From IMG/VR virus record IMGVR_UViG_3300044658_000058, positions 89,293 through 153,292 of that record: a DNA stretch of 64,000 bases, one strand, 5' to 3'. The notes beneath the pieces were generated by a model, which did not search any database, was not told the DNA's origin, and was given only the letters and a program-made list of their open reading frames with translations. Origin of the DNA: a virus. Numbering within the stretch: position 1 is the stretch's first letter; each line of letters starts with the position of its first letter. A program made the translations under genes and the position numbers. Shown piece by piece: positions 18,376 to 21,062 of the stretch.

Positions 18376-18421
18376 ATGCCCGTAAATAGTATGAAACTAT
18401 TTATACCCTAAATACGGGCAT
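18376..18421. promoter_or_regulatory. divergent late promoter region with inverted repeats
   Basis: TATAAATA on minus at 18398-18405, TAAATA on plus, and ATGCCCGTA/TACGGGCAT inverted repeat. Confidence 0.55.
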
Positions 18422-18917
18422 GACGAAATTTCTATTACCAGAAGAAGACGCTAAGAAGCGTCGAAAGGCAAAAAAGAAGTCGAAACTTCCGCAACCGAAG
18501 TATTTTGTGGCCGAAAATCCGCAAAAATACATGGGCGACCCTAATTGTATTATCGCCCGTTCAAATCTGGAAAGAAAATTTTACAAAATTTTTGATTCCA
18601 ACCCGGCAATTCTCAAATGGGGTTGTGAAGAGATGTTCATTCGTTACAAATCATCTATCGACGGAAGTATTCATCGTTACTTTCCGGATGCAGTTATCAA
18701 AATCAAGACACGTTCTGGCAAAACAATCGTGTGTATGATTGAAATCAAGCCAAAAAAACAGTGTTTTCCGCCAAAAAACACTAAATCCAAGCGTTTTTTG
18801 AACGAACAAATAACTTATCAGACGAATCAGGACAAATGGAAAGCAGCCAAAGACTTTTGTAAAGCCAATGGCATGGTCTTTCACGTACTAACCGAAGAGC
18901 ATGTAGGAGGGTTTTAG
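18420..18917 (+). CDS. gp4: head completion protein gp4 (TnsA-like nuclease fold)
   Basis: NP.KY.GD...I..RS..E, W..EE..I.Y.S.ID...HRYFPD, IEIKP..Q, N..KW.AA. Confidence 0.92.
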   Translation: MTKFLLPEEDAKKRRKAKKKSKLPQPKYFVAENPQKYMGDPNCIIARSNLERKFYKIFDSNPAILKWGCEEMFIRYKSSIDGSIHRYFPDAVIKIKTRSGKTIVCMIEIKPKKQCFPPKNTKSKRFLNEQITYQTNQDKWKAAKDFCKANGMVFHVLTEEHVGGF

Positions 18918-19382: not shown

Positions 19383-19849
19383 CCAATCCTACTCCCGTCC
19401 GGTCGCATTTTGACGCCTCCGTCAGCCGGATCACATGGATGGTGACCCATGACCGCAAAATATTTGTCCCGCATGAGTTTCTTGCCATTGAACCAGAAAC
19501 CCCAACGACGGGACGGTTTTCCGGTAATCAGGAAAGTCCAAGTACCGGGAATCACATTCTGGACGGAATGTCGAAATTCGGCTTCCCGAAATCGGACCAT
19601 GCCGGGTCGCAGTGTTTCCTTGAAAGTGAACCCTTCCTTCGGCGTGAGTGAAATATCGTCATAACCGCCCTTCAAGATGAAGGTGAGAAACCAGTACGGA
19701 TGATCGTGATAGGCCCGATGATCATCATCGCCAAGCCAATGATGGAGGCGAAGTGAAAACCAGCCGAAATCAAGAACATATTTGTAAAAATATGGACATT
19801 CTTTCAGACCGCCCGGCTGTTTCCATGTGAGTTTGGGGAGAAATCTCAT
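19379..19849 (-). CDS. cupin-like protein
   Basis: LRLHHW...D.HR.YHDHPYWF.TFIL.GGY, H.V, WT..ITG...R.WGF; start moved to ATG 19849 (GGAG RBS). Confidence 0.7.
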   Translation of the reverse strand: MRFLPKLTWKQPGGLKECPYFYKYVLDFGWFSLRLHHWLGDDDHRAYHDHPYWFLTFILKGGYDDISLTPKEGFTFKETLRPGMVRFREAEFRHSVQNVIPGTWTFLITGKPSRRWGFWFNGKKLMRDKYFAVMGHHPCDPADGGVKMRPDGSRIG

Positions 19850-20139
19850 TTGTAGTATCTCTCCGCAAATTCTTTGGCCGTTTGAACCCAATAGGGAGTA
19901 GCCATACCGAGTGTAGCGGAAAGGATATTTCCGAGAATTTCCACCTTCCCGTCAACGACCATCGTATCACGCTTTGAGACACGATGTGTTCTTGCCAGTT
20001 TTAAGAAGGTTTGGTGGGTCGTCATCATTTTGACCCAGACGACCGCTTGCGTCTTGTCAAATTTCCAACCTCCCGGCGCTGGAAATTCTTTAGCGCCGCC
20101 CGCCGTCGAAATTACTACCTTCTGTTCGCTCATAAACAA
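19846..20139 (-). CDS. hypothetical protein
   Basis: Operon packing. Confidence 0.65.
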   Translation of the reverse strand: MFMSEQKVVISTAGGAKEFPAPGGWKFDKTQAVVWVKMMTTHQTFLKLARTHRVSKRDTMVVDGKVEILGNILSATLGMATPYWVQTAKEFAERYYK

Positions 20140-20569
20140 TCAATCCCGATTCCACATGCTTTCCATCAATCTGGAACGTATCATAGGGGAGAGGATGAAA
20201 GTTGTCAATATATTTGTTAATATTTTCAGAATCTTTACGCACCAGTGCGACAAGCTTGCCGCCCGGTTTCAAAAATCTGATTGCATGATCAACGTGAGGG
20301 ATTGAATTTTTTGGCGGGCACATTAGAACGGCATCGAACTTCCGTGCGTAAGTCACGTTTGGATTGAGTGTGAGAAAATCGTGATTGAGACAACGAAAAC
20401 CCTTGGACTCAAGATACGAGGCGGCTTTCTTGTTCAATTCAACGCACTCTACATGAGCGCCTAATAATCTGGCAATTTTAGCCAGATTGCCATAACCGGC
20501 AGATGGTTCTAAAACACGGGAACCATCTTGAACACCAGCAAGATTGGCCATTTCAATAGCCAAGAACAT
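20090..20569 (-). CDS. class I SAM-dependent methyltransferase with atypical motif IV (MCPP)
   Basis: VLEPSAGYG, VELN, DFL, FDAVLMCPP and LKPGG.LV motifs; start moved to ATG 20569 because the track start lies inside the RNA gene. Confidence 0.75.
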   Translation of the reverse strand: MFLAIEMANLAGVQDGSRVLEPSAGYGNLAKIARLLGAHVECVELNKKAASYLESKGFRCLNHDFLTLNPNVTYARKFDAVLMCPPKNSIPHVDHAIRFLKPGGKLVALVRKDSENINKYIDNFHPLPYDTFQIDGKHVESGLIVYERTEGSNFDGGRR

Positions 20570-20592
20570 AGGTGTTTCTTTTGCAGGAAGAT

Positions 20593-20814
20593 TGGTCCGA
20601 GTGGACCGATTCGAACAGCCGACCCCTAAGTTTTCATCTGGGCTTTCATCCGGTTTGGTTTCTGTAGCGAACATATTACCCTATCGGAATCCCTGTAGAT
20701 TTCATTCGTCATTGTCGCTCTGTTCGTACCAGCCGTCGCCAGTCATCCCTTCGCTATCGTCCGAACTAATTTCTCCTACCAGCCTTAGTGCTCTACCAAC
20801 TGAGCTACACTCGG
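20593..20814 (-). ncRNA. tRNA-like RNA with 153-nt insertion in place of the anticodon loop
   Basis: CCGAGTG-TA-GCTC-AGTTGGTA-GAGC-A-CTAAG-[153 nt]-CTTAG-GGGTC-GGCTG-TTCGAAT-CGGTC-CACTCGG-A-CCA; own promoter. Confidence 0.85.
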
Positions 20815-20822
20815 ATAACCTC

Positions 20823-20851
20823 TAGATATGTGAACCCCATTTCGATGTCAA
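20823..20851 (-). promoter_or_regulatory. sigma70-type promoter of the tRNA-like RNA
   Basis: TTGACA-17nt-TATCTA, 8 nt upstream of the acceptor stem. Confidence 0.75.
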
Positions 20852-20889
20852 TGGACGATTTTTACTTTTTTTGTAGTTATCGTCTTCTC

Positions 20890-21062
20890 GTAGCGGTCTG
20901 TGAGAATTTTCAAAAACTGTCTAAGCTCTACATCGCTGCAAGCAAGGGTGAGAGTGGTAAACCCGTCCTTACAGGACGGAATGTACACTTCCCAAAGAGT
21001 GTGCATGGAACGTCCCTTCGTTGGCCGGATGACAAGCTTCTATACGAAGCATTGTCTTGCTA
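20890..21062 (+). ncRNA. candidate multi-hairpin structured RNA
   Basis: Stems GTAGCGGT/ATCGCTGC, and AGCAAG/CTTGCT enclosing CCGTCCT/AGGACGG, TGTACACT/AGTGTGCA and GACAAGCTTC/GAAGCATTGTC; G-U pairs favour the plus strand. Confidence 0.5.

Follow-up and report, generated by a model that had tools for sequence, protein, structure and literature searches.

A tRNA-Phe-shaped RNA with a large insert in its anticodon arm heads a methyltransferase operon in T4-like soil phages and their relatives

The window analysed here, a stretch of 64,000 nt (positions 89,293 to 153,292) of the 153-kb IMG/VR phage record IMGVR_UViG_3300044658_000058, which is 85% complete, carries on its minus strand a 222-nt RNA gene with the complete cloverleaf of a tRNA-Phe(GAA), opened between tRNA positions 31 and 32 by a purine-rich insert of 146 nt. 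The RNA shape is maintained by compensatory base changes across a family of phage relatives, the RNA is linked to the gene of a small amino-methyltransferase, which in the window starts within the insert and runs through the 3' half of the tRNA, and the insert belongs to no known class of introns. The reading we prefer, to which we give about an even chance, is that the RNA stays unspliced, uses the tRNA-Phe body as a scaffold that is recognised via the Phe identity set, and here also forms the 5' end of the methyltransferase mRNA.

The window derives from a soil T4-like phage and contains the T4-type baseplate genes gp5 and gp53, and the RNA locus lies amid a run of small early-type genes on the minus strand. 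ARAGORN in its default mode calls no tRNA in the window, and Rfam gives zero matches there at gathering scores and nothing relevant up to E = 10. With introns allowed, ARAGORN reports a tRNA-Phe(GAA) that is split at 31/32 by an intron of 146 nt. The elements of the RNA and its promoter are as follows:

20593–20814, minus strand: whole tRNA-Phe(GAA)-shaped RNA, 222 nt, CCA encoded (ARAGORN with introns allowed; covariation in 18 relatives)
20784–20814, minus strand: 5' half, comprising the acceptor 5' strand, U8 A9, the D arm, A26 and the 5' strand of the anticodon stem (sequence, relatives)
20638–20783, minus strand: purine-rich insert, 146 nt, between tRNA positions 31 and 32 (114–200 nt at the same site in relatives)
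20779–20782, minus strand: 5' strand of the closing helix, CUGG, one purine past the anticodon stem, pairing with 20638–20641 (covariation)
20638–20641, minus strand: 3' strand of the closing helix, CCAG (covariation)
20631–20637, minus strand: unpaired 7-nt AUGAAAA leading from the closing helix to the anticodon stem, with GAA at 20635–20633
20593–20630, minus strand: 3' half, comprising the 3' strand of the anticodon stem, the variable loop, the T arm, the acceptor 3' strand, A73 and CCA; doubles as methyltransferase codons 15–27
20846–20851, minus strand: -35 hexamer TTGACA, read directly and found at the same place in the relatives L003, L025, L030 and L031
20823–20828, minus strand: -10-like hexamer TATCTA, 17 nt past the -35 hexamer (TATAT(A/C/G) at equal spacing in relatives)

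The acceptor stem CCGAGTG/CACTCGG has 7 bp, with C1:G72 and a G:C pair at 3:70, and is followed by the D arm GCTC-AGTTGGTA-GAGC, the 5-bp anticodon stem CTAAG/CTTAG, the 5-nt variable loop GGGTC and the T arm GGCTG-TTCGAAT-CGGTC, which leads to A73 and CCA. This results in a cloverleaf with stems of 7/4/5/5 bp and the conserved tertiary nucleotides U8, A14, G18 G19, T54 T55 C56 and A58. An initial annotation of the sequence had described a perfect acceptor stem, D-arm, anticodon stem, T-arm and encoded CCA, all of which are borne out on 20814–20593 of the minus strand. The 153-nt domain that it saw in place of the anticodon loop is real, but equals the 146-nt insert at 31/32 plus the 7-nt AUGAAAA. 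It had rightly called the insert rich in purines (64% as compared to 50% in the surrounding strand) and had proposed two pairings within it. The first, CTGG/CCAG, is the closing helix, whereas the second, TAGCGAA/TTCGCTA, is present in the window sequence, but lies outside the minimum-energy fold and was not seen by eye in the inserts of the two closest relatives. The fold energy of the whole RNA is not better than that of shuffled sequences (z = -1.25).

The dedicated promoter suggested in the same annotation has a perfect TTGACA that is conserved in four T4-like relatives, but its -10 hexamer TATCTA is weak, which is why the site is not called by a consensus scan. From the usual σ70 geometry transcription would start 1–4 nt before tRNA position 1. 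A 52-aa reading frame upstream (20848–21006, minus strand) ends in the -35 region of this promoter. The frame is conserved in relative L003 (56% identity over 39 aa, E = 3e-11) and is probably a small protein gene, not a plus-strand 'multibranch ncRNA'.

Close relatives are three IMG/VR contigs in which the same split tRNA, with a 172-nt insert, adjoins gp53 (gp53 96% identical). Further members were found in JGI, ENA and Logan assemblies via homologues of the downstream protein, and the protein search also led to cultured phages, i.e. Rhizobium phage RHph_Y1_11, the Caulobacter phages CcrColossus and CcrPW and the Brevundimonas phage Bajun. The GenBank records of these four annotate no RNA at the site, and in RHph_Y1_11 the entire tRNA lies within the annotated methyltransferase gene. 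In total, 21 related RNAs from metagenomic phages and the four cultured phages could be parsed, all of them with inserts of 114–200 nt at the same site. An exhaustive profile search returned dozens of protein clusters that share at most 50% identity with one another and in which the N-terminus corresponds to the translated tRNA 3' half; a few clusters also carry the translated 5' half, so the family is large. Nucleotide and exact-match searches were less productive: compared as DNA, the locus had no match in the phage collection, an exact-peptide search of IMG/VR with the methyltransferase returned zero relatives, and the exact 19-mer of the 5' junction had zero matches. A pattern of T loop plus trailer had 55 matches in IMG/VR, nearly all of them ordinary tRNAs or att-site fragments, and a composite pattern (T loop, ACCA and LEPSAG in this order) gave in metagenomes mostly chance matches, L087 and L090 being the only new members among the matches listed. 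A search of sequencing runs with the locus sequence found soil and rhizosphere DNA runs only and no RNA runs.

Selection on the shape of the RNA was assessed in an alignment of 18 members, with 500 shuffles as control. Standard pairs occupy 95.8% of the stem cells, as compared to 70.4% in the shuffles and at most 49% if the partners are slid against each other. Changes on both sides of a pair occur in 21 of 25 pairs, including 7/7 acceptor pairs and 5/5 pairs of the anticodon stem, and none of the 500 shuffles reaches any of the observed measures; all four stems covary strongly. The methyltransferases of the compared relatives are 34–76% identical to that of the window, and the residues encoded by the tRNA 3' half vary freely (G/C/R, R/P, S/L, T/H/A) with pairing retained; the constraint therefore acts on the RNA and not on the peptide. 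These data also bear on the trivial explanation that a tRNA gene was disrupted by an insertion and overprinted by the methyltransferase frame, leaving no function for the RNA. The gene is indeed interrupted, is missed by default tRNA finders and is read as coding sequence in the GenBank record of RHph_Y1_11. Nevertheless, a decayed gene is contradicted by the compensatory changes, which keep all stems, and by tRNA-encoded amino acids that vary freely over conserved base pairs, and we regard this explanation as extremely unlikely.

The insert itself is closed by a helix of 4–7 bp that is present in every member and covaries, with CUGG/CCAG in the window and CCGG/CCGG, CCGU/ACGG, CCCC/GGGG, UCCA/UGGA or CGAC/GUCG elsewhere. 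It measures 4.7 bp on average, whereas shuffling of the partners gives a mean of 3.4 bp and no more than 3.95 bp in any of 300 trials. Usually this helix is connected to the anticodon stem by a single purine on the 5' side and, on the 3' side, by an unpaired heptamer of the form A-N-GAA-R-N.

The triplet in this 7-mer is GAA in 21/21 members. As it is also invariant in GC-rich genomes, where the Glu codon GAG would be expected, and in the copies of CcrColossus type, which are overlapped by no reading frame, it points to selection on the RNA. Moreover, the family retains U20, G44 and A73 as well as a D arm and a variable loop that resemble those of tRNA-Phe, with E. coli tRNA-Phe as the standard of comparison. 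The D loop AGTTGGTA is found in 15/21 members; the T loop TTCRANY occurs in all members collected and the ACCA tail in 18/18 cleanly parsed members, the T-loop pattern and CCA being themselves criteria of the parser. Hence, the identity is that of tRNA-Phe and not that of tRNA-Pro, as had initially been proposed from C1:G72 and A73, which are features of the family. Likewise, the TGG at the start of the insert, taken for a Pro anticodon, is not conserved, with CCG, CCC and other triplets in relatives.

A decoding tRNA-Phe requires, besides the GAA anticodon, A73 and the CCA end, which are all present, a U33 and a purine at position 37, and these two are not kept family-wide. Of the 21 members, 9 have U, 6 have A and 4 have C at position 33, and 14 have A, 6 have G and 1 has C at position 37, two rows being mis-registered in either case. 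Position 33 differs even among close relatives (L025 versus L026; L003 versus L029, L030 and L031), and behaves like the free third base of an Asp/Glu codon. C37 marks a clade made up of L219 and the proteins P0025 and P0028, the latter found on 13 contigs.

The main competitor of an unspliced RNA is a true intron in a tRNA-Phe gene: a structure-specific endonuclease of host or phage would cleave at either end of the closing helix and a ligase would join positions 31 and 32 to yield a decoding tRNA-Phe(GAA), and the methyltransferase start codon would merely happen to be intronic, as is the case for some open reading frames of introns. Several observations speak for such an intron and weigh against our preferred reading. 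The fixed geometry, i.e. a single site, a covarying junction helix and mostly exactly seven unpaired nucleotides on its 3' side, would suit a splicing enzyme that measures structure, and removal of the insert would restore a 7-nt loop with GAA as anticodon, just as ARAGORN models it. The loop of the window, A-U-GAA-A-A, has both U33 and A37 and could decode after splicing. All nucleotides of tertiary interactions, U20 and GAA are conserved, and the full conservation of elbow, A73 and CCA exceeds what most tRNA mimics keep. Finally, the Rnl1 (PF09511) search was run without a working control, on a phage record that is incomplete.

There is also a precedent for such genes in Lak megaphages, in a study reportedly by Devoto et al. 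that later appeared in Nat Microbiol (2019). The passages on these phages describe tRNA genes, including tRNA-Phe(GAA), with 'enigmatic' introns that are not ribozymes (10.1101/356790), i.e. as in the window, phage tRNA genes are cut in the anticodon region by inserts of no known class or removal route. The RNA of the window falls into this group, which is defined by description only. On the level of such descriptions the two differ, as these passages mention no linked methyltransferase, no gene start in the insert, no loss of U33 and no translation of the 3' half.

The evidence against an intron starts with the loop, as U33 is found in only 9/21 members and C37 in one clade. Known splicing machineries do not match either. 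The group I introns of tRNA-Leu(UAA), tRNA-fMet, tRNA-Ile and tRNA-Arg resemble the RNA in that they lie in the anticodon region of a bacterial-type tRNA and sometimes contain an open reading frame. However, they are self-splicing ribozymes of at least ~200 nt with a U before the 5' splice site, whereas the insert described here has 146 nt at site 31/32, a fold no more stable than shuffles, no Rfam match and G31 instead of U at the end of the 5' exon, although the final intron G is present. In agreement with the initial annotation, which had argued against group I, the group I covariance model (conserved core P3–P9) gave zero matches up to E = 10 in the window and in CcrColossus; Rfam as a whole gave no match at gathering scores in CcrColossus. 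In the bulge-helix-bulge of archaeal and eukaryal introns, which mostly lies at position 37/38, a 4-bp helix is flanked by bulges of 3 nt; the junction here lies at 31/32 and leaves 1 nt on its 5' side but 7 nt on its 3' side. In the 85%-complete phage record no match was found to RtcB, Rnl2-type ligase or splicing endonuclease (PF01139, PF09414, PF01974).

Further arguments against splicing come from the cultured phages. In CcrColossus, CcrPW and Bajun the insert-bearing copies next to the methyltransferase contain an extra nucleotide between T stem and acceptor stem. Where phiCbK has its normal tRNA-Phe, CcrColossus (JX100810, 68452–68526) and Bajun (ON529858, 137351–137425) moreover carry a tRNA-Phe(GAA) that is uninterrupted and has U33 and A37. 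The idea that the insert-bearing copies substitute for a missing tRNA-Phe thus finds no support, and in these two phages the insert-bearing RNA is not needed for decoding. The uninterrupted genes have a D loop without GG and a T loop TGCGARC and are missed by ARAGORN in its default mode. Altogether, we consider the intron possible, yet on balance rather unlikely; its removal, or processing of the RNA at the 3' end, would also destroy the methyltransferase message that overlaps it. The genes of this operon are:

20090–20674, minus strand: small amino-methyltransferase, 194 aa, ATG (20674) inside the insert, motif IV CPPK
20679–20682, minus strand: Shine-Dalgarno-like AGGG, 4 nt before the methyltransferase ATG, within the insert
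19846–20139, minus strand: 97-aa gene in the same operon, conserved in L003 and L005
19379–19891, minus strand: cupin protein downstream of the methyltransferase (phrog_4786 'cysteine dioxygenase', E = 1e-34, no Pfam match)

The methyltransferase frame runs through the 7-mer and the whole tRNA 3' half. Once the preceding stop has been passed, ATG 20674 is the sole start that this frame offers. TP, the conserved motif X of M.TaqI-type enzymes, with which the alignment to M.TaqI begins, lies upstream of the only later Met, which is missing in four homologues. Every member with an overlapping frame can start it at a codon within the insert or ahead of it, often together with a Shine-Dalgarno-like sequence, and in L031 a one-base deletion relative to L003 is accompanied by a different upstream ATG, so that the frame stays open. 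As the TP motif would otherwise be lost, the later Met is absent in four homologues, no other in-frame start is available and the frame is kept in L031, the start in the insert is real and not an artefact of gene calling. In the AlphaFold2 model the core has a pLDDT >90, while residues 1–27, encoded by insert and tRNA, are disordered (pLDDT ~50). The closest folds are TrmN, M.TaqI, PH1948 and Trm11, i.e. amino-methyltransferases of tRNA or DNA, and the M.TaqI profile matches with E = 7e-8. In addition to TP, the protein contains LEPSAG (motif I), and its motif IV, CPPK here and (N/C)PPx family-wide, lacks the aromatic residue of the (N/D)PP(Y/F) that marks γ-class (M.TaqI-like) amino-methyltransferases. 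A literature search found no description of such a methyltransferase overlap or of a tRNA-like leader of a phage methyltransferase, and a search for CcrColossus together with tRNA, intron or RNA-seq found no CcrColossus paper among the titles listed. The initial annotation had interpreted the locus as a tRNA-scaffolded ncRNA, which agrees with a conserved RNA that has no Rfam family, but it had overlooked the ribosome-binding site and start codon of the methyltransferase in the insert and the linkage within the operon.

At every locus with enough upstream DNA RNA and methyltransferase occur together. A clear cupin homologue follows the methyltransferase in L003 and CcrColossus, the two loci for which identity was compared, and genes of similar size are found there at the other loci. 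Both RNA and methyltransferase are absent from the related phage L005 (gp53 73% identical), and the module is therefore an accessory cassette. In L003 gp53 is 96% identical to that of the window, the methyltransferase only 65–68%, and the insert can barely be aligned; the pace of change, whether by divergence or by exchange, is thus much higher in the cassette than in the structural genes. On the opposite strand (18420–18917, plus strand), a 165-aa protein with a TnsA-like endonuclease fold (PF08722, E = 2e-18; PHROG label 'head closure') is encoded in the stretch that separates the cassette from the baseplate genes, and it is kept in all gp53-linked relatives.

In CcrColossus (L222), CcrPW (L224) and Bajun (L223), members of the Dolichocephalovirinae, two insert-bearing tRNA-Phe-like genes stand in tandem before the methyltransferase. 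In CcrColossus (JX100810) they occupy 1011–1286 and 1299–1547 and are, as in CcrPW and Bajun, unannotated in GenBank. The CcrColossus methyltransferase has its own GGAGG and ATG, 29 nt past the CCA. Due to this separate start the insert cannot be merely a carrier of the start codon, and the RNA with its insert is a gene in itself. The constant feature is the linkage to the methyltransferase and not the overlap with it. Permuted tRNA-like pieces, with T arm and acceptor 3' strand preceding acceptor 5' strand and D arm, are found elsewhere in CcrColossus (JX100810, ~108700–109460, minus strand) and recall the architecture of YrlA/Y RNA-like RNAs. Two ARAGORN 'intron' calls at 108.7–109.5 kb are artefacts of these permuted sequences.

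The position of the RNA, which is always at the 5' end of the operon with the methyltransferase start codon in the insert or 29 nt past the CCA, is also what one would expect of a purely cis-acting leader, i.e. an operator or processing element without function in trans. The methyltransferase might regulate itself by binding a replica of its substrate tRNA that adjoins the start codon of its gene, or the RNA might be a tRNA-like 5' cap, with RNase P trimming it and the CCA protecting it against RNase Z. Autoregulation is consistent with TrmN and Trm11, two tRNA amino-methyltransferases, being among the closest folds, and the tRNA-like operator of E. coli thrS provides a precedent. In both the thrU-tyrU-glyT-thrT-tufB operon and thrS of E. 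coli, tRNAs or tRNA-like elements are co-transcribed with a protein gene, the processing or translation of which they influence. However, the tRNAs of the thrU-tufB operon are intact and lie outside the coding sequence and the thrS operator mimics the anticodon arm only, whereas the phage RNA overlaps the gene. Besides, elbow, A73 and CCA would seldom all be required of an operator, and the tandem duplication, which places the distal copy far from the start codon, fits a stable RNA that is released better than a leader. Hence, we judge a function solely in cis to be unlikely.

The exposed, invariant GAA on an otherwise perfect tRNA body and the presence or absence of the module as a unit in a variable early region would also fit an RNA that, as decoy or sponge, captures a host factor directed against tRNA-Phe, e.g. 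an anticodon nuclease or another defence that attacks tRNAs. The grafted domain would make the mimic uncleavable, and methyltransferase and cupin would be mere cargo. However, we know of no defence aimed at tRNA-Phe, and it would go unexplained why the RNA is so closely tied to a single methyltransferase family in phages that are distant from each other. This makes a decoy very unlikely in our view, even though phage tRNAs that evade anticodon-directed defences are documented (PMC10264068).

Two further classes of RNA with tRNA-like parts invite comparison. tmRNA (SsrA) likewise has tRNA-like acceptor and T-arm halves that enclose a large domain with translated sequence and ends in CCA. However, tmRNA is devoid of D stem and anticodon stem, its identity is that of Ala (G3:U70) and it depends on SmpB, whereas the phage RNA is a full cloverleaf with Phe features, beyond the end of which the translated frame continues as an ordinary gene. 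That the RNA is no tmRNA, as stated at the outset on account of the full D arm and the missing G3:U70, holds: D arm and anticodon stem are complete, G:C occupies 3:70 and the RNA is recognised as tmRNA by neither ARAGORN nor Rfam. A short acidic frame in the insert, considered as a tmRNA-like tag, found no support, with no matching frame seen by eye in the inserts of the relatives. Outside the window the same phage record contains at C1:66376-66720 a permuted tmRNA of the two-piece type, called by ARAGORN, with the tag DNDNFVPLAVAA. Permuted tmRNAs are typical of alphaproteobacteria, and this would fit the hosts of the cultured relatives. YrlA/Y RNA-like RNAs (RF02553), some of them encoded by phages, combine a faithful tRNA-like elbow with another helix at the anticodon arm. 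They are circularly permuted, with the T arm before the D arm, and pair with Rsr/Ro, whereas the phage RNA is not of this permuted type as judged by RF02553, which has no match in the window and in CcrColossus only a sub-threshold one at the junction of the tandem copies (25 bits versus a gathering score of 69).

Based on these findings we favour the following picture. With an early promoter of its own the RNA stands at the head of the methyltransferase-cupin operon, and its canonical tRNA body carries a domain of 114–200 nt grafted between nucleotides 31 and 32, the closing helix of which leaves the Phe triplet GAA exposed in a 7-nt bulge beside the anticodon stem. The insert would be retained, resulting in a stable RNA of ~222 nt with the tRNA body as scaffold, which may be recognised by a reader of tRNA-Phe identity, most likely PheRS or the co-encoded methyltransferase. 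In the lineage of the window the same transcript would be the 5' end of the methyltransferase mRNA, and the tRNA 3' half would be translated as a disordered N-terminal tail. From established rules of tRNA processing the two fates of the transcript should be mutually exclusive, as folding and processing at the CCA end would cut the message after codon 27, whereas a ribosome reading through would open the cloverleaf. Structure, conservation, overlap and linkage can be read directly from the genomes; from them we infer that the RNA remains unspliced, by which route it may be processed and which partner may bind it.

Since 2019 it has been on record that some tRNA genes of phages carry unexplained inserts, none of them with a known mechanism. 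Our analysis adds that the shape of such an RNA is under selection while the rules for the decoding loop are relaxed, that a protein gene can start inside the insert and be translated through a tRNA half, and that the RNA has a constant partnership with a small amino-methyltransferase and a cupin protein. At present, gene callers annotate such RNAs as protein-coding sequence. With unannotated members in cultured phages of Caulobacter, Brevundimonas and Rhizobium the question of spliced tRNA versus scaffold becomes accessible to experiment. A more far-reaching proposal, which we advance with considerable reserve as it is probably too bold, is that these RNAs constitute a new class of phage ncRNA, a tRNA-Phe scaffold with a variable grafted domain, in which GAA and A73-CCA are kept for PheRS or for a methyltransferase that lacks a recognition domain, and that the RNA would be substrate, cofactor or targeting subunit of the enzyme and, at the same time, its mRNA.

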